Origin: an uncultured Bacilli bacterium
GTDB taxonomy: Bacteria; Bacillota_I; Bacilli_A; RF39; UBA660
Assembly (NCBI GenBank): GCA_934177545.1
Contig: CAKPPI010000001.1
Span: 4,255-68,254, forward strand
Length of the DNA stretch: 64,000 bases
Direction of reading: 5' to 3'
The translations under genes and the position numbers were made by a program. This document shows, piece by piece, positions 7,804 through 60,161 of this stretch (positions are counted from its first letter, which is position 1; each line of letters opens with the position of its first letter). The notes beneath the pieces were generated by a model, which saw only the letters and a program-made list of their open reading frames with translations, searched no databases and had not been told where the DNA came from.

Positions 7804-9633
7804 TTGAGCAGTATGTACTTTACAATTAGTGGCTTATTTTGTATAGTGCTATTAATGATACTATTCTTTTCTAAAAGTAGAATAGATAGTAAAGAAACTA
7901 AACTATATGGTTTTATGCTACTTAGTAGTTTCTTTGATGTAATTTTAGTATTAGCAGAGCTTACAATAACTTATTATTTCCTAGATGATGTTAATATGTA
8001 TTTAGTAAAAGGATTAAATAAAATAGACTTTATTCATTATATAATGTGGCCGACATTACTTAGTCTATATACAATTTATGTTACCTATCTAGATGAAGAA
8101 AAATATAATAAAGCGAAAAAGATATTCTTAACTATAGATATAATTGCTATTCTTATCGAGTTTATGTTACCAATTAATATAATATCTAATAAAGAAGCAA
8201 TGGGAGTTACAGGTATTGGACCAACCTTTGTTTTTCTAATATCTTCTTTCTATGTAATAGTAAATATAATTATTTTAATAAAGAATTATAAGAAAATTAA
8301 GAATAAAAAAAATCTTCCATTTCTTTTCTTTCTTATCTTTATAATAATAGCTATGCTACTTAGAGTTTATAATCCAACATTAATAGTAATACCAGCTATA
8401 ATTGTTTATATTAATATGATAATGTATTTTACAATTGAAAACCCTGATGTTAAACTGATAGAAGAGATTAATATAGCTAAAGAGTCAGCTATTAAAGCTA
8501 GTAATGCTAAGACTGAATTCTTATCAAATATGTCTCATGAGATAAGAACACCACTTAATGCGATAGTTGGGTTTTCAGAAGCTTTACAAAGTGATGAGAG
8601 AATACCAGTAGAGACTAAGGAAGATATTAAGAATATAGTAATGGCTAGTGATAGTTTATTAGAAATAGTAAATGGTATATTAGATATTTCTAAGATAGAA
8701 GCTGATAAATTAGAAATTATTAATACAACTTATTCACCTAGAAAAATATTTGATGAATTAGTAGTATTAACTAGAGGAAGACTTGGATTTGAGAAACAAA
8801 TAGAATTTAGAACAAGTTTTAGTAGTGATATACCAACTACTTTGTATGGAGATTATGCAAGAGTAAAACAAATAGTTTTAAACTTATTAACTAATGCTGT
8901 TAAGTATACTAATGAAGGATATATTAGTTTTACGGTAGAATGTGTTAATATAAATAAAGATTTATGTAGATTAATTATTTCTGTTGAAGATAGTGGTATA
9001 GGAATTAAAAAAGATAAAATAGATAAATTATTTACTAAATTTGAACGCCTTGATGAAGAGAAAAATATTACTATTGAAGGTACTGGTCTTGGACTTGCTA
9101 TTACTAAAAAACTAGTTGAATTAATGCATGGGAAGATGGTAGTTCAAAGTATCTATGGTAAAGGAAGTAAGTTTACTGTATCACTTGATCAAAAGATAGT
9201 TGCTACTAAAGAAAAAGAAGAAATTAAAGAAAAAACAGTAGTAAAAGGTAACTATAAAGGAAAAAGAGTTTTAGTAGTAGACGATAATAAACTTAATCTA
9301 AAAGTAGCAGAAAGACTATTAAGAGAGTATAATTTATTTGTAGATGAAGTAGCAAGTGGATTTGATGCTATAGATAGAATTAATATGGGAGTACCTTATA
9401 ATCTAATCCTAATGGATGATATGATGCCTAAGATGAGTGGGTGTGAAACTTTAAAAGAATTAAAGAAGAATAAAGACTTTCATACTAAGATAGTGGCACT
9501 AACTGCTAATGCTATTTCTGGAATGAGAGAAAAATACTTAAGTGTTGGTTTTGATGATTATTTAGCTAAACCAATAAAAAAAGAAGAGTTAGAAGTTATT
9601 TTAGATAAATATTTAAAGGAGGATAAGAAATGA
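7804..9633 (+). CDS. hybrid sensor histidine kinase: multi-TM sensor, HisKA, HATPase_c and a C-terminal receiver domain
   Basis: An N-terminal membrane region of about 6 TM segments. H-box SHEIRTPLNAIVGF, G-box GTGLGLAI, and a receiver with VLVVDD...MDDMMPKMSG. TTG start at 7804, with an alternative ATG at 7813. Confidence 0.85.
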   Translation: MSSMYFTISGLFCIVLLMILFFSKSRIDSKETKLYGFMLLSSFFDVILVLAELTITYYFLDDVNMYLVKGLNKIDFIHYIMWPTLLSLYTIYVTYLDEEKYNKAKKIFLTIDIIAILIEFMLPINIISNKEAMGVTGIGPTFVFLISSFYVIVNIIILIKNYKKIKNKKNLPFLFFLIFIIIAMLLRVYNPTLIVIPAIIVYINMIMYFTIENPDVKLIEEINIAKESAIKASNAKTEFLSNMSHEIRTPLNAIVGFSEALQSDERIPVETKEDIKNIVMASDSLLEIVNGILDISKIEADKLEIINTTYSPRKIFDELVVLTRGRLGFEKQIEFRTSFSSDIPTTLYGDYARVKQIVLNLLTNAVKYTNEGYISFTVECVNINKDLCRLIISVEDSGIGIKKDKIDKLFTKFERLDEEKNITIEGTGLGLAITKKLVELMHGKMVVQSIYGKGSKFTVSLDQKIVATKEKEEIKEKTVVKGNYKGKRVLVVDDNKLNLKVAERLLREYNLFVDEVASGFDAIDRINMGVPYNLILMDDMMPKMSGCETLKELKKNKDFHTKIVALTANAISGMREKYLSVGFDDYLAKPIKKEELEVILDKYLKEDKK

Positions 9634-10406
9634 GAGATGTAACACTACTAACTAGTAATGGAGTAAATGTAGCTAAAAGCTTAGAATTATTTGGAGATAT
9701 GACAACTTATGATAGTACCCTAAGTGACTTTTTAGCAGATATTAATGAAAAAGAAAATAAAATTAAGGCTTATAAAGAAAGTGGTGATATGGCTAACTAT
9801 TCTATCTATGTTCATGGTCTAAAGAGTGATGCTAAATACTTTGGATTTGATGCTTTAGCAAATTATGCTTATCAACATGAAATGGCTAGTAAAGAAAATA
9901 ATCTTTACTTTGTAACAGAACACTTTGCAGAGTTAATCCTAGAACTAGATAGAATTGTACACTTAGTAAAACAATATTTAGGACTAGAAAGTGCTGGAGT
10001 ACAAACTACTATTGTAACCCCTAAAAAAGATAGAGCTTTAATAGTAGTAGATGATTCAGCAGTTATTAAAAACTTTGTTTTAAAAATATTTGATCAACAG
10101 TTTGAAGTTTTAATGGCAGGAGATGGAGAAGAAGCCTTAAAAATGATAAATAATGCAAATGGTCAAAAAATAGTAGGAATGTTGCTTGACCTTAATATGC
10201 CAAACGTTGATGGATTCCAGGTATTAGAATACTTTAAAGACAACAATTTATTTGATTCTATTCCTGTATCAATAATTACCGGAGTAGGGGACAATACTTT
10301 GGTAGCTAAAGCTTTTGAATATCCAATCGTTGATATTATTAGAAAACCATTCAATGAAAGAGACATAAAAGCAGTAGTAGAAAAAACAATTCAATATGCT
10401 CACTAA
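9630..10406 (+). CDS. HPt-receiver phosphorelay protein (N-terminal HPt domain plus C-terminal CheY-like receiver, no output domain)
   Basis: HPt signature HGLKSDAKYFG and a receiver with LIVVDDS...LLDLNMPNVDG...K. It overlaps the kinase stop by 4 nt. Confidence 0.75.
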   Translation: MRDVTLLTSNGVNVAKSLELFGDMTTYDSTLSDFLADINEKENKIKAYKESGDMANYSIYVHGLKSDAKYFGFDALANYAYQHEMASKENNLYFVTEHFAELILELDRIVHLVKQYLGLESAGVQTTIVTPKKDRALIVVDDSAVIKNFVLKIFDQQFEVLMAGDGEEALKMINNANGQKIVGMLLDLNMPNVDGFQVLEYFKDNNLFDSIPVSIITGVGDNTLVAKAFEYPIVDIIRKPFNERDIKAVVEKTIQYAH

Positions 10407-10422
10407 AAAAATTAAAAAGAAT

Positions 10423-10452
10423 TTGACATAGTTCGACAAAATGTGTTATTAT
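10423..10452 (+). promoter_or_regulatory. sigma-A-type promoter driving the rnr leader
   Basis: -35 TTGACA (10423-10428), about 17-18 nt spacer, TG-extended -10 TTATTAT. Confidence 0.5.
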
Positions 10453-10456
10453 TTTA

Positions 10457-10620
10457 TTGGGAAGTTGGTACAACGATTGAGTATAAACTTGTGCTTATCT
10501 TAAAACGATGTGGTATCCATAAATTTTATATCTAGTTGTAAACTTCCCAACACTTACGTAGTAGGTGTAAAGAGGGAAAAATAGTACTCCGATCATTTTT
10601 TCCCTCTTTGTGCCTACTAC
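10457..10620 (+). ncRNA. highly structured 5' leader segment (two long hairpins) preceding the T-box element
   Basis: ttgggaagtt (10457-66) pairs with aacttcccaa (10541-50). A 24-bp stem (10558-10581 with 10596-10620) contains three consecutive G-U wobbles, so it is perfect only as RNA. Confidence 0.45.
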
Positions 10621-10639
10621 ATTTTAATATGTTTGAGCA

Positions 10640-10831
10640 GGGGATATGATAAAATATCAAACTTATTTAGAGACTTCGTGGCTGGTGAAAACGAAGAAGA
10701 AGTATTTTATTACTACCTTTGTGAGTAGAATTATGAAAAGTAATTCCGGGTGACCGTTATTCTAAATAAAGTAAAACAGTGGATGGTACCGTGTTTATAC
10801 ACTCCTATGATTAATCATAGGAGTTTTTTGC
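10640..10831 (+). promoter_or_regulatory. T-box riboswitch leader (candidate Thr specifier) upstream of rnr-thrS
   Basis: Stem-I distal motif GGCUGGUGAAAACGAAG. T-box sequence AGUGGAUGGUACCGUG (about 10779-10793). Terminator hairpin ctcctatga/tcataggag plus T6 (10801-10831). A candidate specifier ACU-A sits in the Stem I 3' strand. Confidence 0.55.
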
Positions 10832-10849
10832 TTTGTGAGGTATATAATT

Positions 10850-13150
10850 ATGATAAAAGAAAGACTTAAAACATATTTTAAAAAGAATAAACAATCTGTT
10901 GGAATCAATGAGTTGGCTAAAATATTAAAACTAACTAAAGAAGAGAAATCTGTTCTTTCTAAAAATTTGTATGAACTTGAAAAAGAAGGAACATTAATAC
11001 TTACCGAAGACAATAAATATTTGCCAGTAGCAGATGAGTTTTATTTAAAATGCGGAGTAGTAAAACAGTCTAATAAGGGAAGACTTTATGTTGATTTGAA
11101 AAACGGTATACGTATACATCTTTCTGACAAATTTATGGATAAGGTAAAAGTAGGAGATACCGTATATGTAGAGGAGAAAGAGAAGGAAAATACTAAACAT
11201 AATAAATATCATGAAGGAAATATTGTAAGAATTGTAAAAGAAACAGAAGGAGAGAGTCCTTTATCTTTAATGAAAGGAGTGCTTGAAAGAGATTATGATA
11301 GTAATAGATTGTTTTTAAAAAAAGATAATCATAAATACTTTGTTACAACTGGAAAAACAGCTAGTGCATATCCTCTTGATGTTGTTACTATCTTAGTAAA
11401 CAATGTTACCAAAGAAGTTGAAGTTAAAGACATAATTGAAAGGAAACATAGCAAACATGTTTTTGAATGTATAGAAAATAACGGAGTTAAAAAATGGGCA
11501 CCAGTTGGTACTGAGTATTTTGAAATAGAAAAAAAACCAAGAGAAGATGATCAAGTTGGCAAAAGAGTTTTTGCAAGTTTAATAGAAATTGATGATAAAT
11601 ATACAATAAGTATAGAAAAAGAAATAAGTGCTAAGACTAAGATGGAAAAAGTAATATTTTCTTCATTGTTAGAACATGGATTTGCTACTTCTTTTTCCAA
11701 TAAAGCTATTTTAGAAGCCGAAAGAGTATCAAATAAGAAAGATGATTTTAAGAGGAGAGATTTATGTGACTTAGAGACTTTTACTATAGATTCGATTTAT
11801 GCAAAAGATTTGGATGATGCTATTTCTTTAGTGCGAGAGGAAGATAATTTTGTATTATATGTATCTATTGCTGATGTATCGTTTTATGTTAGACCAGAAA
11901 TGAGAGTGTTTGATGAGGCACTTGATAGGGCTACATCGGTTTATCCTGCTGATACAGTGTCTCCAATGATACCAACTATTTTGTCAAATAATAGTTGTTC
12001 ACTAAATCCTAATGAAGATAAATATGCACTAACTTTAAAAATAGTTTTGGACAAAATGGGAAATACTAAGGATTTTGAAATATTTCCAAGTATTATTAAA
12101 AGTGATTTGAAGATGAGTTATGAAAAGGTAGATAATTTGTTATTAGGAAAGGATAAACCATTAGAATATTTATCTCATTATAGAACATTAATAAACATGT
12201 ATCATTTAGCTAATCTTTTGTTAAATAAGAGATTAGAAAAAGGAATGCTAGGATTAGAAGGGATAGATATAAATTTTGATATAGATGATCTTGGTAATCC
12301 ATTATCTATCAATGAACGGACTAAAGGGCCAGCTGGAATGATTATTGAAAATTTTATGTTGTTAGCTAACCAAACAGTAGCAGACTATGCCTATTATTTA
12401 GGTATACCGTTTGTTTATAGAAATCATGAGGGACCAGATTTTTCTAAGAAAAAAAGCTTAGAACGAGATCTTAATAGAGTAGATAAGAGAATAAAACATA
12501 TACCTAATATAGATGATCCTGTTAAGATGCAACAATTTTTCCTGACGGTTACTAAAGGAAAAAACGAAGAAGAAGTCAAAATGCTTTCAGAAATATTTAT
12601 TAAAAATTTTCAAAGAGCATATTATAGTGATCAAAATATTGGGCACTACGGATTAGTTATACCAAGATATGCCACATTTACATCGCCGATTAGAAGAGGT
12701 AGTGATTTATTAAATCATCTTTTCTTGAATGAAGTTTTAAGATATAATGGTAATGATCAAAGTTTAACTGAGATTAAAAGTAGTTTATCAGCAATAACAG
12801 AACACTTATCAACTATGCAGGAAGAAGCAGAACAAGTTGAAAATGAGGTTAATTTCTATTTGTTAAAGAAATATAGTAAAGAATTTAGTGGAGTAGTACT
12901 TCCTGCTAGTTTAAACTTCCTGCGAGAAGATATGGCTTATTTAAAAACAGATAACTTAATACCAGGTATTATTAATAGGAGTAGTAGATATCAGATTAAT
13001 ACAATAAATGGAACACTATATGATAAGAAGATAGATAAGCTTTATCATCTCGGGGATAAGGTAGCAGTAGAAATTAAAGATAAAAAAGCAGTAAGAAATC
13101 AAATAACATTTGATTTAGTAGAAAAAGAAAAAATATTGATTAAAAGATAG
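10850..13150 (+). CDS. rnr: ribonuclease R
   Basis: N-terminal HTH/cold-shock domains, an RNB catalytic domain and a C-terminal S1 domain. Start ATG at 10850 with GTGAGG RBS. Confidence 0.9.
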   Translation: MIKERLKTYFKKNKQSVGINELAKILKLTKEEKSVLSKNLYELEKEGTLILTEDNKYLPVADEFYLKCGVVKQSNKGRLYVDLKNGIRIHLSDKFMDKVKVGDTVYVEEKEKENTKHNKYHEGNIVRIVKETEGESPLSLMKGVLERDYDSNRLFLKKDNHKYFVTTGKTASAYPLDVVTILVNNVTKEVEVKDIIERKHSKHVFECIENNGVKKWAPVGTEYFEIEKKPREDDQVGKRVFASLIEIDDKYTISIEKEISAKTKMEKVIFSSLLEHGFATSFSNKAILEAERVSNKKDDFKRRDLCDLETFTIDSIYAKDLDDAISLVREEDNFVLYVSIADVSFYVRPEMRVFDEALDRATSVYPADTVSPMIPTILSNNSCSLNPNEDKYALTLKIVLDKMGNTKDFEIFPSIIKSDLKMSYEKVDNLLLGKDKPLEYLSHYRTLINMYHLANLLLNKRLEKGMLGLEGIDINFDIDDLGNPLSINERTKGPAGMIIENFMLLANQTVADYAYYLGIPFVYRNHEGPDFSKKKSLERDLNRVDKRIKHIPNIDDPVKMQQFFLTVTKGKNEEEVKMLSEIFIKNFQRAYYSDQNIGHYGLVIPRYATFTSPIRRGSDLLNHLFLNEVLRYNGNDQSLTEIKSSLSAITEHLSTMQEEAEQVENEVNFYLLKKYSKEFSGVVLPASLNFLREDMAYLKTDNLIPGIINRSSRYQINTINGTLYDKKIDKLYHLGDKVAVEIKDKKAVRNQITFDLVEKEKILIKR

Positions 13151-13162
13151 GAGAGATAAAAA

Positions 13163-14920
13163 ATGAAAAATATAAAAGAAGATAAAATATTAATGCCGCT
13201 TAATCATAGTTGTGCACACTTATTAGCAGAAGCAGTAAAAAGTTTATATCCAAAGGCTAAGTTTTGGGTAGGACCAGTTATTGAAGAAGGATTTTATTAT
13301 GATATAGATTTAGGAGATAAGACTCTAACTGATGAAGATCTACCTAGAATAGAAAAAGAAATGAAAAAGATTGCTAAAGGTAATAAAAGAATAGTACGTC
13401 ATGAACTATCTAAAGAGGAAGCTTTAGAAATGTTTAAAGATGATCCTTATAAGATAGACCTTATTAATGAGTTTCCTGCTGATGAAGTTATTACTTGTTA
13501 TACCCAAGGGGAGTTTACTGATCTTTGTCGTGGACCACATGTTGAATCTACTAAAGAATTAAGACATTTTAAATTATTAAAGTGTAGTGGAGCCTACTAT
13601 AAGGGTGATTCTAAAAATAAAATGTTACAAAGAATCTATGGCGTATGTTACCAAAATGAAGAAGATTTAGAATCTCACTTAAAGGAACTAGAAGAAGCTA
13701 AAGAGCGAGATCATAGAAAACTAGGTAAAGACTTAGGAATATTTATGTTATCAGACTTAGTAGGTAGAGGACTACCTCTATGGTTACCTAATGGTTATAC
13801 TTTATGGAGAACAATTCAAAACTATATAACTGAAAAAGAAGTAGAGCATGGTTATAAACATGTCCATACTCCAGACCTTGGTAGTATAGAGCTATATAAG
13901 ACATCTGGACACTGGGATCATTATAAAGATGATATGTTCCCACAAATGGAGTTAGATGAAGAAGCATACGTTCTTCGTCCAATGAACTGTCCTCATCATA
14001 TGGTTATCTATGGTAATAGACTTCATTCATATCGTGATTTACCAATAAGAATAGCAGAAATAGCTAATGACTTTAGATATGAAGCAGCAGGAGCAGTAAA
14101 AGGTATTGAAAGAGCAAGATCATTTACTCAAAATGATTCACATATATTCTGTACTCCAGAACAAATAGAAGAAGAGTTTAAAGGTGTATTAGATTTAATT
14201 ATTGAAGTATATAAAGATTTCAATATAGATATAACTAAACATAAGTTTAGATTATCTTTAAGAGATAAAAATGATAAAGAAAAATACTTTGATGATGATG
14301 AGATGTGGAATAGAGCAGAAGATGCTTTAAGAAAAGTATTAACAGATTTAAAAGTAGACTTTATAGAAGCAGAAGGAGAAGCAGCATTCTATGGACCAAA
14401 ACTTGATATTTTAATTAAACCAGCTGTTGGTAATGAAGTAGCTATTCCAACTATTCAGTTAGATTTCTTACTACCAAGAAGATTTAATTTAACTTATATA
14501 AATGAACAAGGAGAAAAAGTAACTCCAGTTGTTATCCATAGAGCTATATTAGGTTCTCTTGATAGATTTATAGCCTTCTTATTAGAGGAGACTAAAGGTA
14601 ATTTACCACTATGGTTAGCACCAGTTGGGGTAGAAGTTATTCCAGTATCTAGTGAACATCATTTAGAATATGCTAAGAATGTTTATCAAGAACTTCTTAA
14701 GAATGGTATAAGAGTAGAATTAGATGACCGTAATGAAAAATTAGGATATCGCCTAAGAGAAGCTCAAACTAGAAAGATTAATTATACTTTAATATTAGGA
14801 GATAATGAAAAATTAGATAGAACAGTAAGTTATAGATTACATGGTGAAAAAGAAACTACTACTGTTAGTTTGGATGAGTTTATCAAACTATTAAATGATG
14901 AAATATCAAATAAAAGATAA
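13163..14920 (+). CDS. thrS: threonyl-tRNA synthetase (short form lacking the N-terminal TGS domain)
   Basis: The CAHLLAEA editing-domain motif, the HRDLPIR class II core and an anticodon-binding domain. 585 aa. Confidence 0.9.
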   Translation: MKNIKEDKILMPLNHSCAHLLAEAVKSLYPKAKFWVGPVIEEGFYYDIDLGDKTLTDEDLPRIEKEMKKIAKGNKRIVRHELSKEEALEMFKDDPYKIDLINEFPADEVITCYTQGEFTDLCRGPHVESTKELRHFKLLKCSGAYYKGDSKNKMLQRIYGVCYQNEEDLESHLKELEEAKERDHRKLGKDLGIFMLSDLVGRGLPLWLPNGYTLWRTIQNYITEKEVEHGYKHVHTPDLGSIELYKTSGHWDHYKDDMFPQMELDEEAYVLRPMNCPHHMVIYGNRLHSYRDLPIRIAEIANDFRYEAAGAVKGIERARSFTQNDSHIFCTPEQIEEEFKGVLDLIIEVYKDFNIDITKHKFRLSLRDKNDKEKYFDDDEMWNRAEDALRKVLTDLKVDFIEAEGEAAFYGPKLDILIKPAVGNEVAIPTIQLDFLLPRRFNLTYINEQGEKVTPVVIHRAILGSLDRFIAFLLEETKGNLPLWLAPVGVEVIPVSSEHHLEYAKNVYQELLKNGIRVELDDRNEKLGYRLREAQTRKINYTLILGDNEKLDRTVSYRLHGEKETTTVSLDEFIKLLNDEISNKR

Positions 14921-14925
14921 AAAGA

Positions 14926-14960
14926 AAACTACTAGGATTTGACTCTTAGTAGTTTTTTTC
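14926..14960. terminator. bidirectional rho-independent terminator between thrS (+) and the lipoprotein gene (-)
   Basis: Hairpin actacta...tagtagt with a T7 run on the plus strand. It lies between convergent genes. Confidence 0.55.
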
Positions 14961-15851
14961 TTAATCATTAGTACCGTGATATAACTCTTCTTTTAAAGTA
15001 TCCAAGTTTTGATTCATTAAAGTGACATAATCACTTTTATTTTTTCTTGCTTCCTCTGTTAATAAATTCATGTGTTTAAATGATGCAAAGGAAACAGTAT
15101 TAGGATATTTATTAATAATATTTTGCACATTAGCAGTTGTCTTATCTTCTTCATAGTTAAATATCTTAGTAATCTTACCTTGTTTGATTAAAGTATCAAT
15201 TTCACTTAAGTCCTTACTAGATGTATCATCATTTACTAAATATACTTTAACACCATATTTTTCTAGGAACTTATAAGCTGAATTAGAAGTAACAATTGTC
15301 TTATAAGGAGCATTTTCAACTGCTAGTCTAATGTTAGCATCTAACTCAGAAACTGTTATCTTTAATGTTTCGTAATTTTTATCAATTTCTTTTCTCAAAT
15401 AATTATTTTCTACATATTCTTTTAAACTAATTCTAACATTTTGACACATCATTAACATAAATGAGGGATCATTCCATAACTCTTCCGTATCATTATTATC
15501 TTCTAAAACATAAGAACTATCAATTATTTTTAAGTTACTATTATAATCAAGTAGTTTAACAGCTAAGTTTCTTTCTCTCTCAATTAGACCAGTATAGATA
15601 AGTAAATCTTGACTAGCTAAATCTTCTTTTCTTTTATTAGTTATTTTATAAGTTTTAGTATTAACTCCATCTGGATAGACCGATGAGATAGTAGCATGCT
15701 TTCCATATAAGCTTGATATTATATATTCATTAGGATAGTTTGTAGTGATAATCGATATATCTTCCATATTATCCCTTCTACATGCACAAGTGGTTAGGAC
15801 TAATCCTAAGCATATTATTATTTGTAAAAATAAACGTCTATTTTTTTTCAT
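14961..15851 (-). CDS. lipoprotein with a ZnuA/TroA-like (cluster 9) solute-binding fold that lacks the canonical metal-ligand histidines
   Basis: Lipobox [23 protein letters not shown] and ELWNDP resemble the ZnuA IVTSHDAFGYF and DPHxW motifs. No adjacent permease or ATPase. Confidence 0.45.
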
Positions 15852-16164: not shown

Positions 16165-16960
16165 AATTAAAGATAAGGAAGAGGTGATTAACTGTGTATA
16201 TGTCAATCAATATGTCAAGTTTACAACTAGTTAACATGGGGGGGGGCAATTTAGACAGTAATAATACTCTTTTTTATCATGCATTAATAACAGGATAGGA
16301 TTGGCCTTATCTTGTTTTTTAGTGTAAATAAAATAGAAGGAGTGAAAGAAAAAATGAACAACAAAAAGCAATTAATTGTATCAATTGGACTAACCTTAGT
16401 ATTAGTTCTAATGATAGTAGGAATCAGTTATGCAGCTTTTAAGTTTGTAGGACTAGGTCAGAGGGAAAATACTATAACAACAGGAGCTATAACGATGGAG
16501 TATACTGAAAGTACTAATACTATCAGTATGACAGGAGCCTTACCAACAACTGATACAACAGGAAAGGTAAGATTAACTAAAGGAGAATACTTTGATTTTA
16601 CTATTAAAAGTAGTATTCAAGGAAATGCTAATATTAACTGGGAAATAGCAGCAGAAGATATAACACCATCATCAGCTAAAAAGATGGCTGGTAAAAATAT
16701 AAAACTTTATTTAACAAAATTAGATAGTACTGGAGCAGAAACACAGGTAATGGCACCAAAAGTATATAATGTTAGTACGTCAGCAAATACAAAGACAGGA
16801 AGACCATCAGGAGTAATGAGTCTAGCAACAGGAACAATGAGTACAAGTGAGACAACAAACTATCGTCTTAGAATGTATGTAGATGAAGACTATAATCCCC
16901 AAGGAGATGGAGGAGGTTTATCATTTAGTGTTAAGATAAATGCTTATGGAAAAGTAAAAG
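16165..16960 (+). repeat. copy 1 of a ~0.8 kb duplicated segment (promoter region plus 5' CDS) shared with 60271..61060
   Basis: Near-identical sequence from aattaaagataaggaagaggtgatta through the first ~200 codons. It carries a G9 homopolymer at 16238-16246. Confidence 0.85.
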
Positions 16961-18099
16961 AAGCCCCAACAGGTAGTAAGATAAAAGCTTATATGACACA
17001 AGCTGATTATGATAATGATAACTATCCAGAAACAGACTTTCATACTGATGCTTATAGGTCAAAAATAACTAGTATTATCACAAAAAAAGATAATATAGTA
17101 CCAGCAACAGCAGTTGAAAGTTGGGATATCTCAGAAGCAGGTGATGGTTCAGTAATGGCTTATGTAGAGAAAACTGATGAGGTATTGAAACCAGAACCAG
17201 CTAATGCAGAGATATATTCTAATAAAGGAGAAACAAAAGACATGTTAGAAACAATATACGCTACACCTCTTGAGGGAACCAATACTAATTATGCTTATAA
17301 GTTAACAATAGGTGGAAAGGGTGGAATTATTGCAAATGAAAATATGGTAGGTTATTTTTATAAGTTTAAAAGAGTAACATCAATAGATTTGTCATCCTTA
17401 GATACATCGGAAGTAACAAATATGGTTGGAATGTTTAGACACTGTATCAGTTTAACAAGTTTAGATGTAAGTAAGTTTGATACATCGCAAGTAACAGATA
17501 TGAGTAATATGTTTATTGGTTGTGAAAGTTTAACAAATCTAGATGTAAGTAGTTTTGCTACATTAGAAGTAACAGATATGAGTAATATGTTTTATGAGTG
17601 TAGCAGTTTAACAAGTTTAGATTTAAGAAACTTTGATACCTCAAAAGTGACAAATATGAGTTATATGTTTGATTACTGTATCAGTTTAACAAGTTTAGAT
17701 GTAAGTAAGTTTGATACATCTAACGTAACAGATATGAGTTGGATGTTTCGTAATTGTAGCAGTTTAACAAGTTTAGATTTAAGAAACTTTGATACCTCAA
17801 AAGTGACAAATATGAGTGAGATGTTTGGTTATTGTGAAAGTTTAACAAATCTAGATGTAAGTAGTTTTGTTACATTAGAAGTAACAGATATGAGAGGTAT
17901 GTTTAATAATTGTTGCAGTTTAACAAGTTTAGATTTAAGAAGCCTTGATACATCACAAGTAACAGATATGAGTGGTATGTTTGATATATGTAGTAACTTA
18001 ACCCAAATAACTGTTTCTAATAAATGGGTAGTAGGATCAAGTACCTTAACTGATAGAATGTTTTTTAACTGTGGAACTGATCATGTAACTACTATCTAG
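16354..18099 (+). CDS. secreted or surface protein with a conserved N-terminal domain and C-terminal DUF285-type leucine-rich repeats (Mycoplasma/BspA-like)
   Basis: Signal-anchor MNNKKQLIVSIGLTLVLVLMIVGISYAAF. Eight tandem 26-aa repeats fitting C-SLTSLD-S-FDTS-VT-MS-MF. The real start is ATG at 16354; the track ORF starts further upstream. Confidence 0.75.
   Translation: MNNKKQLIVSIGLTLVLVLMIVGISYAAFKFVGLGQRENTITTGAITMEYTESTNTISMTGALPTTDTTGKVRLTKGEYFDFTIKSSIQGNANINWEIAAEDITPSSAKKMAGKNIKLYLTKLDSTGAETQVMAPKVYNVSTSANTKTGRPSGVMSLATGTMSTSETTNYRLRMYVDEDYNPQGDGGGLSFSVKINAYGKVKEAPTGSKIKAYMTQADYDNDNYPETDFHTDAYRSKITSIITKKDNIVPATAVESWDISEAGDGSVMAYVEKTDEVLKPEPANAEIYSNKGETKDMLETIYATPLEGTNTNYAYKLTIGGKGGIIANENMVGYFYKFKRVTSIDLSSLDTSEVTNMVGMFRHCISLTSLDVSKFDTSQVTDMSNMFIGCESLTNLDVSSFATLEVTDMSNMFYECSSLTSLDLRNFDTSKVTNMSYMFDYCISLTSLDVSKFDTSNVTDMSWMFRNCSSLTSLDLRNFDTSKVTNMSEMFGYCESLTNLDVSSFVTLEVTDMRGMFNNCCSLTSLDLRSLDTSQVTDMSGMFDICSNLTQITVSNKWVVGSSTLTDRMFFNCGTDHVTTI
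17380..18010 (+). repeat. tandem array of about eight 78-bp (26-codon) DUF285-type repeats
   Basis: Long exact DNA matches between units, for example agtttaacaagtttagatttaagaaactttgatacctcaaaagtgacaaatatgagt appears twice. Confidence 0.8.
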
Positions 18100-30426: not shown

Positions 30427-30503
30427 GTCTCAGTAGCTCAGCTGGATAGAGCATCGCCCTTCTAAGGCGAGTGTCATGGGTTCGAATCCCCTCTGGGACA
30501 CCA
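30427..30503 (+). tRNA. tRNA-Arg (anticodon TCT) with an encoded CCA end
   Basis: Cloverleaf with acceptor stem gtctcag/ctgggac, D-arm tagctcagctggatagagc, anticodon loop CTTCTAA, T-arm gggttcgaatccc. A terminator hairpin follows at 30516-30543. Confidence 0.9.
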
Positions 30504-54959: not shown

Positions 54960-55231
54960 ACAAGTTATAAAATAGTATTGTAAACTTTACTAGAAAACGT
55001 TGATGAAGAGAAGTAGTAATACTTGACTTATAAGAGAAGCTGTGGTTGGTGAAAACAGTTAAGAAAAGTATTAACGAATAACACTTCGGAGTGCTTAAAG
55101 AATAAAGTAGACTAAGCCGGGTAGACTCCCGTTAACAAGATAAGCGATTATCATGCTTGATAATAAATTGGGTGGTACCGCGGGTAAAAGACTCGTCCCT
55201 TAACTGGGATTAGAGTCTTTTTCGTTTTCTA
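54960..55231 (+). promoter_or_regulatory. T-box leader (candidate Asn AAC specifier) upstream of gatCAB-aspS2
   Basis: Stem-I distal motif GGUUGGUGAAAACAGUU. T-box sequence AAAUUGGGUGGUACCGCGG (55166-55184). Terminator aagactc...gagtctt followed by a T-run (55187-55231). Confidence 0.65.
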
Positions 55232-55249: not shown

Positions 55250-55558
55250 GTGATAACTAAAGAAATGCTAAAAGACTATGCTAGAAAGTTAATGTTTGAC
55301 ATGGATGATAATGAGTATGAAACCTTAGAAGATGAGTTTAAAACTATTCTTAAACAAATGGAACTTATCGAAAATATTCCTAATATAAAAAAGACAGAAC
55401 CATTATTTTATCCATATGTCTCATATGAAGCGAAGCTTAGATGTGACGAGATTAATGAAATGGAGATGCTTTCTGTTAATGAGGTGTTAGAAAATACAGA
55501 ACATCAAGTAAGAGATCAAGTAAAAGTACCAAGGGTGGTGGAAGCTGATGAATTATAG
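55250..55558 (+). CDS. gatC: Asp-tRNA(Asn)/Glu-tRNA(Gln) amidotransferase subunit C
   Basis: About 100 aa and acidic, immediately upstream of gatA. GTG start at 55250; the alternative is ATG at 55265. Confidence 0.8.
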   Translation: MITKEMLKDYARKLMFDMDDNEYETLEDEFKTILKQMELIENIPNIKKTEPLFYPYVSYEAKLRCDEINEMEMLSVNEVLENTEHQVRDQVKVPRVVEADEL

Positions 55559-56996
55559 AAAATGTTTAATTAGTGATTTAAGAGAAAATTTAGATGATGG
55601 TAGTATAACTAGTGAAGAACTATTTAATGAAGCAGTTAGTCTTGCTAATAAGTATCAGGATCCTTATAACTGTTTTGTAACTATCTGTGATAAGTTTAAG
55701 ATGAAGAAAAGAACTACGCCACTAGCAGGTATACCTTATGCTTTAAAAGATAATATTTCAACTAGTAATATTTTAACAACAGCATCTAGTAACATCTTAA
55801 AAAATTATGTACCAGTCTATGATGCGACAGTTTATAAGAAATTAAAGAATGCTGGAGCAGTATTAGTTGGAAAAACCGTTTTAGATGAACTTGCTATGGG
55901 TGGAACTGGAACAACTGGACATACTGGAATAGTTAGAAATCCTTATGACAAGACAAGAGAGATTGGTGGATCAAGTGCAGGAAGTGCTGCTGCAGTTGCT
56001 CTTGGAATTGTACCTTTTGCTATTGGAAGTGATACTGGTGACTCTATTAGAAAACCAGCTGCTTTTGGCGGAGTGGTTGGCTATAAACCAACATATGGTT
56101 TAATATCTCGTTATGGTCTATTTGCTTTTGCTTCAAGCCTTGATCATGTTGGTTGCTTTGCAAGAAGTGTTAAAGATGTCGCTTTAGTTACTAATACTAT
56201 TAAAGGATATGATCCTCATGATATGACTACTTATCAAGATGATAGTGATTTACTATCTGGTATCGATGAACCGTTAGCAGGTAAAAAGTTATTTTATATC
56301 AAAGAAATAGTAGATAGAAGCTTATATAAAGAAGACGATGATGAGTTGATGCAAGTATTAGATAACTTTTATTCACTTCTTGAAAGATTAAAAACTAGGG
56401 GAGCAGAAATAACAGAAGTATCCATTGATAAAGCGTTACTAGAAGCGATATATCCTACTTATATGACTATATCTTGTGCCGAAGCGACTAGTAATAACTC
56501 TAACTTAACAGGAATAGCTTTTGGAAATAGAGTAGCTAAAGATGATGTTAATAGTCTAATAACTGCTACTAGAACAGAAGGCTTCTCAGAACTTATTAAA
56601 AGACGTTTTGTCCTAGGTAGTTATATTTTACAAAAAGAAAATCAAGAGAAACTTTATCTAAATGCCTGTCGAGTTAGAAGATTATTAGTAGATAAATTAA
56701 CAAATCTTTTCAAAGAATATGATAGCTTAATCTTACCTTGTAGTGGTGGACCTGCTCCTAAGTTTGATGATGATAGTGACAAGCTAAGTGATAAATACCT
56801 ATTATTAGAAAACCATATGGCACTAGGTAACTTCGGAGGATTCCCATCAATTACTATCCCATCAGGATTTGTAAATAACTGTCCAATTGGTATTAACCTT
56901 ACTAGTGGAATAAAAGAAGATAAGAAAGTATTAAATATTGCTAATGAGATAGAAATGCTAACCGGTCTTAAAGGACAAATAGGAGGTGAAGAGTAA
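55548..56996 (+). CDS. gatA: amidotransferase subunit A (amidase signature family)
   Basis: GGSSAGSAAAVA amidase signature. 482 aa. Confidence 0.9.
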   Translation: MNYRKCLISDLRENLDDGSITSEELFNEAVSLANKYQDPYNCFVTICDKFKMKKRTTPLAGIPYALKDNISTSNILTTASSNILKNYVPVYDATVYKKLKNAGAVLVGKTVLDELAMGGTGTTGHTGIVRNPYDKTREIGGSSAGSAAAVALGIVPFAIGSDTGDSIRKPAAFGGVVGYKPTYGLISRYGLFAFASSLDHVGCFARSVKDVALVTNTIKGYDPHDMTTYQDDSDLLSGIDEPLAGKKLFYIKEIVDRSLYKEDDDELMQVLDNFYSLLERLKTRGAEITEVSIDKALLEAIYPTYMTISCAEATSNNSNLTGIAFGNRVAKDDVNSLITATRTEGFSELIKRRFVLGSYILQKENQEKLYLNACRVRRLLVDKLTNLFKEYDSLILPCSGGPAPKFDDDSDKLSDKYLLLENHMALGNFGGFPSITIPSGFVNNCPIGINLTSGIKEDKKVLNIANEIEMLTGLKGQIGGEE

Positions 56997-58423
56997 TGTA
57001 TGATGTAGTTATTGGACTTGAAGTACACTGTGAATTAGATACGTTATCTAAAAACTTTTCAAGTAGTGAAAATAGTTATACTAAGATTCCTAATATTCAC
57101 GTTTCACCAGTTGATTTAGGACTACCGGGAATATTACCTGTTGTAAATGAAAAAGCTTGTTATAATGCTTTAAGAACAGCGATGGCTCTTCACTGTGAAA
57201 ATCCTGATGAGATAATGTTTGATCGCAAGAACTATTTTTATCCCGACCTTCCTAAAGGCTACCAAATAACTCAAGTTACTAAACCAATGGGAAGAAACGG
57301 TTACTTAGATATATTAGTAGATGGTTCTATCAAAAGAGTATTAATTCATCAGTTACATCTAGAAGAAGATACAGCTAGTCTAGAGCATGATAAGAACTAT
57401 TCCCTAATAGATTATAACCGTAGTGGTATACCACTAATGGAAATAGTAACAGAACCATGTCTTACCAGTGCTCTTGAAGCAGTAACTTTTCTAGAAGACT
57501 TAAGAGATGTCTTCTTATATCTAGGAGTTAGTGAAGCAAAGACTGATAAAGGTCAGATGAGATGTGATGTTAATATCTCTTTAAAAGAAAAAGGTAGTGA
57601 TAAGCTTGGTACTAAAGTCGAGATGAAAAACATTAACTCATTCACAAGTGTCAAAGAAGCGATAGAATATGAAATAAAAAGACAAAGTGAAGCCTTGGCT
57701 AATGGCGAGAAGATAATTCAAGAGACAAGACGAATTGATGAGACGGGAAAAACTCACTCTATGCGTGAAAAAGTAGATGCCATTGATTATAAATACTTTG
57801 TCGATGCTAACTTACCACCAGTTAAAATAACGGATGCTAAGAAAGAAGAACTAAGAAGTTCTATTCCTAAATTAAAACTAGATAGAATTTTAACTTATCA
57901 AAAAGAACTAGGACTAGATTATTATGATGCTTCTATTATTGCTAAAGAAAGAGACCTAGCAGACTACTTTGAAGAGACTGTAAAAGATGTAAGCTTAGCT
58001 GTTAACTTTATAACAACTAGTATCTTATCAACTTTAAATAAACTAGAAATTACTATTGAAGAGTTAGTAGTAACTCCTTCAATGCTAAGTAGTTTAATAA
58101 ACTTAGTAAGTAGTGATAAGTTATCACTTGATCATGCTAAGAAAATACTTTATAAAGCAATAGAATTAAAAACTGATCCTATTAAATTAATAGAGAAAGA
58201 AAATTTGTCACAAATAAACGATAAAGATGAATTAATTAAATACATAAAAATAGAGTTTGATAAATATCCTAATCAAGTAGAACAATATATAAAAGAAGAT
58301 AATTTATCAGTTATTAATTTCTTTATGGGAAAAGTTATGTCATCTACTAAAAGACAAGCTAATCCTAATATGACAAGAGAATTAATCAAAGAAGAACTAG
58401 AAAGGATGAAGAAGAATGATTAA
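56996..58423 (+). CDS. gatB: amidotransferase subunit B
   Basis: MYDVVIGLEVHCEL N-terminus and a GatB/YqeY C-terminal domain. Confidence 0.9.
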   Translation: MYDVVIGLEVHCELDTLSKNFSSSENSYTKIPNIHVSPVDLGLPGILPVVNEKACYNALRTAMALHCENPDEIMFDRKNYFYPDLPKGYQITQVTKPMGRNGYLDILVDGSIKRVLIHQLHLEEDTASLEHDKNYSLIDYNRSGIPLMEIVTEPCLTSALEAVTFLEDLRDVFLYLGVSEAKTDKGQMRCDVNISLKEKGSDKLGTKVEMKNINSFTSVKEAIEYEIKRQSEALANGEKIIQETRRIDETGKTHSMREKVDAIDYKYFVDANLPPVKITDAKKEELRSSIPKLKLDRILTYQKELGLDYYDASIIAKERDLADYFEETVKDVSLAVNFITTSILSTLNKLEITIEELVVTPSMLSSLINLVSSDKLSLDHAKKILYKAIELKTDPIKLIEKENLSQINDKDELIKYIKIEFDKYPNQVEQYIKEDNLSVINFFMGKVMSSTKRQANPNMTRELIKEELERMKKND

Positions 58424-60161
58424 AAATATATATCGTGACTGCTATGCTGGTAGTCTTAGAGAAAAAGATATTGATAAAGAAGTAAAAGTAGCTGGTTTCA
58501 TTGAAAATATAAGAGACCATGGTGGAGTAATCTTTGTTGATTTAAGAGATTACTATGGAACACTACAATTAGTTAGTAATGATGATAAGATGTTTGATGA
58601 TTTAACAAGAGAGTCATCTGTTACAGTAACAGGAAAGATTCGTAAAAGAGATAGTGATGACTATAATGATCGAATTGAAACTGGTACTATTGAATTATTA
58701 GTTAGTTCTATAAAGGTACTTGGTAAGAGTAAGAATGTTTTACCATTTGAAGTTATGACTAGTAAAGATGTATCAGAAGATGTAAGACTAAAGTATCGTT
58801 ATCTAGATTTAAGAAATCCTAAAGTTAAACAATCTATTCTATTTAGAAATAAAGTTATTCACTTTTTAAGAAACTTAATGGAAAGTGAAGACTTTGTTGA
58901 ACTACAAACTCCAATCTTAACTTCATCATCTCCTGAAGGAGCAAGAGACTTTCTAGTACCTAGTAGAAAATATAAAGGAAAGTTTTATGCCCTACCACAA
59001 GCTCCTCAACAATTTAAACAACTACTAATGTGTGCTGGTTTTGATAAATACTATCAAATAGCACCATGCTTTAGAGATGAAGATGCAAGAAGTGACCGTG
59101 TTTATGGTGAATTCTATCAATTAGACTTTGAAATGGCTTTTTCAACTGAAGAAGATGTCCTAAGAATGGGTGAGAAAGTATTTTATGAAACATTTAGGGA
59201 GTTTGCTAAAGATAAAGATATATCAGAACCACCATTTATTAGATTAACTTATAAAGAAGCGATGGAAAAGTATGGTTCTGATAAACCAGATTTAAGAAAT
59301 CCTTTAGTTATAATTGATTTAACAGAAGAGTTTGAAGAGACAGAATTTCGTCCTTTTAGAGGTGTACCAGTTAAAGGAATAAAAGTAGAAAACTTAGCTA
59401 GTAAGAGTAATTCTTGGTTTAATGAGGTAGTTGATTATGCCAAAAGTATTGGTATGCCAGGAATTGGTTATTTAAAAGTAAATGAAGATTTATCATTTGC
59501 TGGTCCTATTGATAAGTTTTTAACTGAAGATGAACGTGAAGCTTTAATAGATAAAGCTGATCTTAAGAAAGATGATGTCTTATTCTTTATAGCAGATCGT
59601 AAAAAATCGCTAGAACTAGCTGGTTCTATTAGAATGGAGTTAGGTAGAAAACTTGATTTAATGGATCCTAATAAATATGTCTTTGCTATCATTCATGACT
59701 TTCCAATGTTTGAGTGGGATGAAGAAAATGAATGCTATACTTTCATGCATAATCCATTTAGTATGCCAAAAGATGGAATGAAAGGGCTTGATCAAAAAGT
59801 AGAAGACATTCTAGCTTATCAATTTGACTTTGTTTGTAATGGTGTAGAATTATCTAGTGGAGCAGTTAGAAACCATGACTTAGAAATCATGAAGAAAGTC
59901 TTTGCAATAGCAGGTTATGAGGAAGAAGAAATCGAAAAGAGATTTAAAGCTTTATATGAAGCTTTCCAATATGGAGCACCACCTCATGCTGGTATGGCCC
60001 CTGGACTTGATCGTATTCTAATGATGCTTCTAGATGAAGACTCTATTAGAGAAACAATCGCATTCCCAATGAGTGCTTCAGGAAGTGATATCTTAATGAA
60101 TGCTCCAAGTACTGTTACAGAACAACAATTAAGAGAAGTACATATCAAAGTAAGAGATTAG
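58416..60161 (+). CDS. aspS: aspartyl-tRNA synthetase, copy 2 (likely the non-discriminating AspRS, given operon context)
   Basis: Full-length bacterial-type AspRS with FRDEDARSDR and a GAD domain. It overlaps the gatB stop. Confidence 0.85.
   Translation: MIKNIYRDCYAGSLREKDIDKEVKVAGFIENIRDHGGVIFVDLRDYYGTLQLVSNDDKMFDDLTRESSVTVTGKIRKRDSDDYNDRIETGTIELLVSSIKVLGKSKNVLPFEVMTSKDVSEDVRLKYRYLDLRNPKVKQSILFRNKVIHFLRNLMESEDFVELQTPILTSSSPEGARDFLVPSRKYKGKFYALPQAPQQFKQLLMCAGFDKYYQIAPCFRDEDARSDRVYGEFYQLDFEMAFSTEEDVLRMGEKVFYETFREFAKDKDISEPPFIRLTYKEAMEKYGSDKPDLRNPLVIIDLTEEFEETEFRPFRGVPVKGIKVENLASKSNSWFNEVVDYAKSIGMPGIGYLKVNEDLSFAGPIDKFLTEDEREALIDKADLKKDDVLFFIADRKKSLELAGSIRMELGRKLDLMDPNKYVFAIIHDFPMFEWDEENECYTFMHNPFSMPKDGMKGLDQKVEDILAYQFDFVCNGVELSSGAVRNHDLEIMKKVFAIAGYEEEEIEKRFKALYEAFQYGAPPHAGMAPGLDRILMMLLDEDSIRETIAFPMSASGSDILMNAPSTVTEQQLREVHIKVRD

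Follow-up and report, generated by a model that had tools for sequence, protein, structure and literature searches.

The stretch of DNA analyzed here (the window) comprises 64,000 nt of contig CAKPPI010000001.1 (assembly GCA_934177545.1) and stems from an uncultured Bacilli lineage of the gut that is known from metagenome-assembled genomes (MAGs; GC 28.7%). It contains a leader of about 390 nt, which is followed by rnr, a gene for an RNB-domain 3'-5' exoribonuclease, and by thrS, the gene for threonyl-tRNA synthetase (ThrRS). Between the promoter and the first start codon, the leader combines a 5' domain with two prominent stems and a T-box element that ends in an intrinsic terminator (Table 1). 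From the available evidence, all of which was drawn from sequences of uncultured gut MAGs, we consider it likely that a threonine-specific, transcription-terminating T-box drives the rnr-thrS operon, and that in this genus the 5' domain has been added to it.

Table 1. Features of the leader and of the rnr-thrS operon; positions refer to the 64,000-nt window.
Feature	Position	Strand	Remarks
Sigma-70-type promoter	10423-10452	+	-35 TTGACA 10423-10428, 18-nt spacer, extended -10 TGtTATTAT 10444-10452
5' domain	10457-10620	+	~165 nt between promoter and T-box
Closing stem P1	10457-10466 with 10541-10550	+	10 bp; begins at predicted 5' end
P2	10469-10474 with 10535-10540	+	stacked on P1
Invariant segment UUAUCUUAAAACGAUG	10495-10510	+	inside P1/P2
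24-bp hairpin	10558-10581 with 10597-10620	+	21 Watson-Crick and 3 G·U pairs, 15-nt loop, no bulge
T-box leader, Rfam RF00230	10623-10809	+	cmscan 59 bits, E = 2.4e-12, full model 1-219
Stem I	~10631-10727	+	
Lower Stem I helix	10638-10643 with 10716-10721	+	CAGGGG with CCUUUG
AG bulge AGAGA	10669-10673	+	kept in orthologues
Distal loop GGCUGGUGAAA	10680-10690	+	closed by CUUCGU/ACGAAG; kept in orthologues
Specifier ACU (Thr) + A	10712-10715	+	directly 5' of lower Stem I helix
Stem II	10728-10746	+	
Stem IIA/B, CGG/CCG, F-box CCGUUA	10747-10759	+	CCGUUA invariant in orthologues; pseudoknot predicted
Purine-rich linker UUCUAAAUAAAGUAAAACA in place of Stem III	10760-10778	+	no hairpin can form; purine flanks AAG...AA kept
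T-box sequence GUGGAUGGUACCGUG	10779-10793	+	
Antiterminator helix A1 GGA/UCC	10781-10783 with 10803-10805	+	
Antiterminator bulge UGGUACC	10784-10790	+	
Antiterminator helix A2 GUGU/ACAC	10791-10794 with 10799-10802	+	
Intrinsic terminator	10801-10830	+	10-bp stem, 4-nt loop (10801-10824), U6 10825-10830; kept in orthologues
Shine-Dalgarno GAGG of RNB gene	10837-10840	+	
rnr, RNB-domain 3'-5' exoribonuclease, divergent RNase R family	10850-13150	+	766 aa
thrS, threonyl-tRNA synthetase	13163-14920	+	585 aa; start 12 nt after RNB gene

A first-pass annotation, made from the letters of the window, had described a T-box-like leader with a consensus promoter, a distal-loop motif, a T-box sequence, a terminator with a U-tract and a possible ACU-A specifier, preceded by a 10-bp stem and a 24-bp stem, and every one of these features was found where it had been placed. 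At the gathering threshold of Rfam, which is 93 bits for RF00230, the region 10623-10830 gave no match, whereas a search in E-value mode that spanned 551 nt aligned the complete T-box model with 59 bits. Thus, the Infernal scan that had been suggested as a check was negative in the first mode and positive in the second. The AG bulge, the distal loop, the F-box, the UGGUACC bulge and the antiterminator are aligned to the model with high posterior probability. The position of the ACU triplet fits the rule of the TBDB database, in which the specifier is located at the 3' end of the specifier loop (PMC7778990); the GAA S-turn motif that usually lies 5' of the specifier codon is absent here. The 5' arm of the terminator shares nucleotides 10801-10805 with the 3' strands of the antiterminator, so that the two structures are mutually exclusive. 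In a terminator scan, the hairpin 10801-10824 with its U6 tract was the sole strong terminator-like site on the + strand.

The homologues of the RNB protein were traced to their contigs for a comparison of the gene contexts. A T-box directly 5' of an RNB-thrS gene pair was found in seven further lineages, with RNB proteins that are 37-84% identical and with scores from 53.6 to 93.5 bits; the leader with 93.5 bits, from locus L013, was the sole orthologue at the gathering score. A terminator follows the T-box sequence in all seven, and the motif UUACU[A/C]C closes the specifier loop on its 3' side in each of the orthologous leaders, even where the RNB proteins are only 37-45% identical. The threonine specifier that had been offered as a possibility is therefore conserved in all lineages examined, with thrS located downstream. 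Because the element recurs in front of the same gene pair together with a conserved specifier and a terminator, it is, judged from this comparison, a genuine threonine-specific T-box of a divergent sub-type. Within the genus, the T-box is 87-90% identical, compared to 53-65% at fourfold-degenerate sites. The large excess over the fourfold-degenerate sites suggests that the T-box is under strong purifying selection.

The promoter scores 11/12 plus the extended -10 TG and is the top promoter-like site in the region 9500-15200. From its position, transcription is predicted to start at about 10458-10460. An alignment of ten distinct leaders, all of them orthologues within this genus-level clade (RNB proteins 78-96% identical), runs from the -35 box up to the start codon, and the promoter is kept in all ten. 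The similarity among the orthologues begins exactly at the -35 box and vanishes upstream of it where the neighboring gene differs, as in L005 and L007. Because conservation starts at the -35 box despite the different upstream genes, the alignment supports this promoter and a single leader that starts from it, in agreement with the first-pass annotation. On the + strand from 10459 to 10640, the promoter scan detected no promoter-like site. The minimum free energy of the whole leader corresponds to z = -6.1 relative to shuffled sequences.

The two genes downstream are arranged as a pair in nine of the related loci (L002, L005, L008, L010, L012, L013, L137, L139 and L142), down to 37% protein identity, and they overlap in five of these (L008, L010, L012, L013 and L142). 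The terminator scan detected no terminator-like site at the RNB-thrS junction. Promoter-like sites are not enriched in the RNB gene (22 found versus 30.7 expected) and the matches are weak (9/12), consistent with the earlier claim that thrS has no promoter of its own. Given the 12-nt gap here, the overlaps in relatives, the lack of a terminator between the genes and a number of promoter-like sites below chance, it is very likely that the RNB gene and thrS are co-transcribed under the T-box. The single rnr-thrS transcript that had been postulated is thus probable for this locus, but the arrangement is not universal, and T-box control of the nuclease does not hold as a general rule. In L136 (1-2841; RNB protein 45% identical), the RNB gene directly follows dnaI and the T-box is located after the RNB gene, and L142 (1-2563) contains the RNB-thrS pair without a T-box in the 161 nt upstream. 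In addition, L012 (1437-3224) has one more RNB paralogue upstream of the T-box, which is highly divergent at 27% identity. Because the T-box and the RNB gene are arranged differently in some relatives, control of the nuclease looks like a by-product of the operon. The simplest reading of these gene orders is that thrS is the target and that the nuclease is co-regulated through its place in the operon. An adaptive link between the nuclease and T-box control would be speculative; RNase R helps to degrade T-box leader fragments in Streptococcus pyogenes (PMC6243249).

The start codon of the RNB gene, ATG at 10850, was picked by alignment to homologues. The encoded protein matches the RNB domain of Pfam with E = 1e-85, and its top match in PDB is an RNase R chain (8cdu_C, E = 3e-69). 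The top NCBIfam match, TIGR02063 (RNase_R), covers residues 139-758 and reaches 414 bits, below the equivalog cutoff of 598 bits. Pfam detected the RNB domain only, and not the cold-shock and S1 domains that are typical of RNase R; nonetheless, the alignments to the NCBIfam and PDB matches continue up to the C-terminus. The N-terminal ~300 aa ahead of the RNB domain (10850-11750) have no Pfam match. These matches argue for classing the protein as a divergent enzyme of the RNase R family. ThrRS, in contrast to the TIGR02063 result for its neighbor, exceeds the equivalog cutoff of TIGR00418 over its full length (709 versus 384 bits) and also contains the Pfam domains.

Following the mechanism known for the family, uncharged tRNA-Thr would pair with the ACU of Stem I and with the UGGU in the bulge of the antiterminator, and its binding would favor the antiterminator over the terminator at 10801-10824. 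RNA polymerase would then enter the bicistronic operon and transcribe the genes for the divergent RNase R-family nuclease and for ThrRS. The nuclease would be co-regulated by lying between the T-box and thrS, the logical target, and the 5' domain, with P1/P2, the inner fold and the 24-bp hairpin, would be transcribed within the same leader. This arrangement would place a 3'-5' exoribonuclease under the control of tRNA-Thr charging in several uncultured gut Bacilli lineages.

In the 5' domain, P1 and P2 enclose about 60 nt, which come out either as a three-way junction or as an extended rod when single sequences are folded; RNAalifold and pair counts gave no compensatory changes for this inner helix. 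The 24-bp hairpin is the best true hairpin of the 64-kb window, with a predicted free energy of about -33 kcal/mol, and the core of its loop, UACUCCGAUCA, is invariant. RNAalifold and pair counting found 98% of the cells paired for the 5' domain and 99.5% for the hairpin (nine sequences). Compensatory changes occur in seven pairs of the 5' domain, whereas shuffling of the columns gave 1.6 ± 1.1 such pairs (0/500) and sliding of the partners gave 0-1. They are located in P1 and in the 24-bp hairpin, four pairs of which are affected, while two of the G·U pairs of the hairpin are invariant. On the opposite strand, these invariant G·U pairs would read as C·A mismatches. Together with the compensatory changes, the invariant G·U pairs therefore assign the structure to the RNA of the + strand, and the claim that the long stem is conserved at the RNA level was borne out. 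The between-species identity of the 5' domain is 88-92%, compared to 58-65% at fourfold-degenerate sites of the adjacent gene, and matches the conservation of the T-box; for the most divergent member, the values are 68% and 53%, respectively. These comparisons are evidence that the 5' domain is a functional RNA under selection.

The 5' domain was seen in one genus-level clade only. In distant relatives, the promoter directly precedes Stem I and thus occupies the place of the hairpin in this clade; the 5' domain is therefore a clade-specific insertion between promoter and T-box. Comparison with Rfam gave no family match for the 5' domain, and BLAST and nhmmer searches of the window and of about 0.89 Mb of fetched loci yielded no second copy, only the orthologous leaders. 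A metagenome scan with the invariant 16-mer returned mostly chance matches, with at least three real loci among the matches listed, and a scan of a genome collection found one near-identical MAG only. Thus, the 5' domain of this genus, which is conserved and covarying and for which no relatives were found, is a candidate for a new structured RNA. Inspection of the sequence revealed a possible alternative helix, in which the linker ACACUUAC (10549-10556) would be paired to GUAGGUGU (10561-10568) in the base of the hairpin's 5' arm; the C-to-U changes of L007 in this linker retain the pairing as G·U.

Several other identities were considered for the leader and rejected. Rfam matches to PyrR and to plant miRNA hairpins were weak, chance matches to the terminator and to the long hairpin. 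The 5' domain is not a mobile or repeated element, as the searches described above recovered orthologous leaders only, and it is not a decayed second T-box, as no second RF00230 match was obtained even at E ≤ 10. The GGUAC at 10467-10471, which might be taken for a T-box remnant, is not conserved. A leader peptide or small open reading frame was dismissed because the short reading frames are broken by stops and 1-nt indels in the orthologues, and a tRNA-like fold because ARAGORN found none. For pairing of the 5' domain with the specifier, the T-box bulge, the terminator or the Shine-Dalgarno motif, the top duplexes were no better than those of shuffled controls. Two short complementarities, of the anticodon-like UAGUA to the specifier and of AUCCAU to GUGGAU, are not conserved in L007. 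A palindromic operator acting at the DNA level is unlikely, as the pairs change in a compensatory way and the G·U pairs are specific to one strand.

For the 5' domain, we tentatively propose a role as a module for RNA stability or processing. P1 would bury the 5' end of the transcript, and the long duplex would either block a 5'-exonuclease or be cut by a double-strand endonuclease such as RNase III, so that the module would set the lifetime of leader and mRNA and leave tRNA sensing unchanged. The 24-bp hairpin has the length required by RNase III, i.e., about 20-22 bp or more of continuous double-stranded RNA; cleavage itself is a proposal. In Staphylococcus aureus, RNase III cuts a helix of the met T-box leader, which leads to decay by RNase J (PMC7913692).

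Several observations weigh against the interpretation as a whole or against parts of it. For the T-box, the RF00230 score in the window is 34 bits under the gathering score, helix A1 of the antiterminator has 3 bp only, and no tRNA-Thr gene, whose anticodon and discriminator base (A73) would be expected to match ACU and UGGU, was found in the window or in 16 related loci. The lack of a Stem III counts in the same direction, given that this hairpin has been called indispensable for binding of the tRNA 3'-end (PMC7583486). With respect to the 5' domain, significant complementarity to the T-box is lacking, and the invariance of the segment 10495-10510 and of the hairpin loop hints at a specific partner, for which an element serving stability alone would have no need. 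The sequence evidence appears to fit a stability role and a sensing role of the 5' domain alike.

The first-pass annotation, correct in its T-box reading, had not mentioned that the Stem III hairpin is absent. The RF00230 alignments contain no such hairpin in the leaders of the window, L008, L010, L012 and L013: a single nt stands in place of the 17-19 Stem III model positions in the window, L008 and L010, and 2-3 nt do so in L012 and L013. The hairpin is missing from every member of this RNB-thrS T-box lineage, while the purine flanks are retained. A survey from 2024 describes Stem III as common to every T-box known to date (PMC11404447). The second T-box of the window (54991-55203) has a normal Stem III. 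A more far-reaching proposition, which we regard as unlikely, is that the 5' domain is a new sensing RNA for a ligand or protein that gates transcription or processing ahead of the T-box, and/or that the T-box senses charging without Stem III. If the former were true, the exoribonuclease-ThrRS operon would be controlled by a two-signal switch; if the latter were true, it would contradict the view of Stem III as an indispensable and universal part of the discriminator. A natural T-box without Stem III would be a useful test case for the sensing of aminoacylation.

Sensing by the 5' domain can be framed more specifically: the domain would be an aptamer or protein site, the long hairpin and the AUUUU behind it would act as a regulated terminator or roadblock, and together with the T-box they would form a two-input attenuator. 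The stems show covariation, and loop and junction do not vary, not even in L007, the most divergent leader, a combination that is the usual signature of RNAs that bind a ligand or partner, the ACACUUAC/GUAGGUGU helix could compete with the base of the hairpin, and a short U-run follows the latter. However, a hairpin of 24 bp and -33 kcal/mol whose loop measures 15 nt is not typical of switchable terminators, only four U, preceded by an A, follow it, and the inner fold lacks covariation support. In addition, the domain is represented by about five independent lineages of one genus, without an Rfam match or another copy in the window or the related loci, and relatives run the same operon without it. 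We therefore rate this two-input attenuator as rather improbable.

Slightly less probable still is that the segment from about 10459 to 10625 is a separate small RNA gene with the long hairpin as its terminator, in which case the T-box and rnr-thrS would be transcribed by read-through. The segment indeed forms one compact unit, in which the 5' end is paired and a hairpin, with AUUUUAAUAU behind it, stands at the other end, and relative to the distant lineages it has been inserted as a block. But the essential thrS has no other promoter, and therefore termination at the hairpin would need to be inefficient; the terminator scan does not call the hairpin because of its 15-nt loop and short U-run, and the unit was never seen apart from the T-box in the sequences compared.

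The first-pass annotation had suggested another function of the 24-bp duplex, which it considered a possible autoregulatory or processing site for the expression of RNase R. In this reading, RNase III would cut the duplex and the RNase R-like enzyme would thereby regulate its own mRNA, much as for Escherichia coli pnp. Autoregulation of pnp by RNase III and the exonuclease is a known precedent in E. coli, and the length of the duplex would suit RNase III. Further precedents are the 5' untranslated region of S. pyogenes pnpA, which is nicked by RNase III (PMC6243249), and the T-box leader of S. aureus (PMC7913692). Yet several lineages have the T-box-RNB-thrS arrangement without the hairpin, so that such a mechanism could not be general to the regulation of this nuclease, and the hairpin is located upstream of the T-box switch, where cleavage would spare both the T-box and the mRNA. 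We give autoregulation of this kind little credence, less than the small RNA gene. Finally, that the T-box is a decaying relic without tRNA sensing, the operon being constitutive or under the 5' domain only, would accord with the score of 59 versus 93 bits and with the loss of a Stem III reported to be essential (PMC7583486), but is highly improbable, as the form without Stem III retains specifier, bulge, F-box and terminator across RNB proteins of 37-45% identity and as 87-90% identity, versus 53-65% at fourfold-degenerate sites, points to purifying selection.

The threonine-specific T-box in front of rnr-thrS shares many features with the thrS and thrZ leaders of Bacillus subtilis, i.e., a T-box with a Thr-codon specifier before thrS, Stem I with AG bulge and distal loop, Stem II, Stem IIA/B with the F-box, an antiterminator with UGGN and an overlapping terminator. 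Unlike in B. subtilis, Stem III is missing and an RNase R-family gene lies between T-box and thrS, and the specifier is ACU, while ACC or ACA is more usual. The thrZ leader of B. subtilis is also long and contains extra structured units upstream, which are T-box repeats; in contrast, the 5' domain described here has no detectable similarity to a T-box. By analogy, the locus resembles the pnp leader of E. coli, in which a long leader hairpin precedes the gene of a 3'-5' exoribonuclease, but the enzyme family is a different one, and relatives that share the operon lack the hairpin. A long helix of unusual stability in a T-box leader is also found in the met leader of S. aureus, where RNA decay is layered over tRNA sensing and where the target of RNase III is the terminator helix, so that the cut separates the leader from the mRNA (PMC7913692). 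The long helix of the leader described here is located 5' of the complete T-box, and both cleavage and a role in decay are only proposed. A precedent for the loss of a module is provided by T-boxes of the glyQS type, which have lost Stem II along with Stem IIA/B as a whole and kept their function (PMC7583486), whereas here the lost module is Stem III of the discriminator domain. Altogether, the core element is ordinary in kind, a threonine T-box on thrS and thus a known type of regulator, and what is new is the absence of Stem III, the nuclease gene in the operon and the novel 5' RNA domain.

The genes on the 5' side of the leader encode a hybrid histidine kinase and an Hpt/receiver protein. 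On the other side, thrS is followed by the convergent znuA, and a 20-nt inverted repeat at 14918-14963, between the two genes, is probably a bidirectional terminator that closes the operon. The second T-box of the window is canonical (141 bits) and the sole one at the gathering threshold; by position, its specifier is AAC (Asn). It precedes gatC-gatA-gatB-aspS (genes 55250-60161), which correspond to the tRNA-dependent route to Asn-tRNA. A T-box in front of gatCAB-aspS is a known arrangement from Clostridium acetobutylicum. The window also contains a gene for tRNA-Arg(UCU) (30427-30503) and a gene for a DUF285/BspA-type leucine-rich-repeat protein (16312-18099), both of which are unrelated to the leader.

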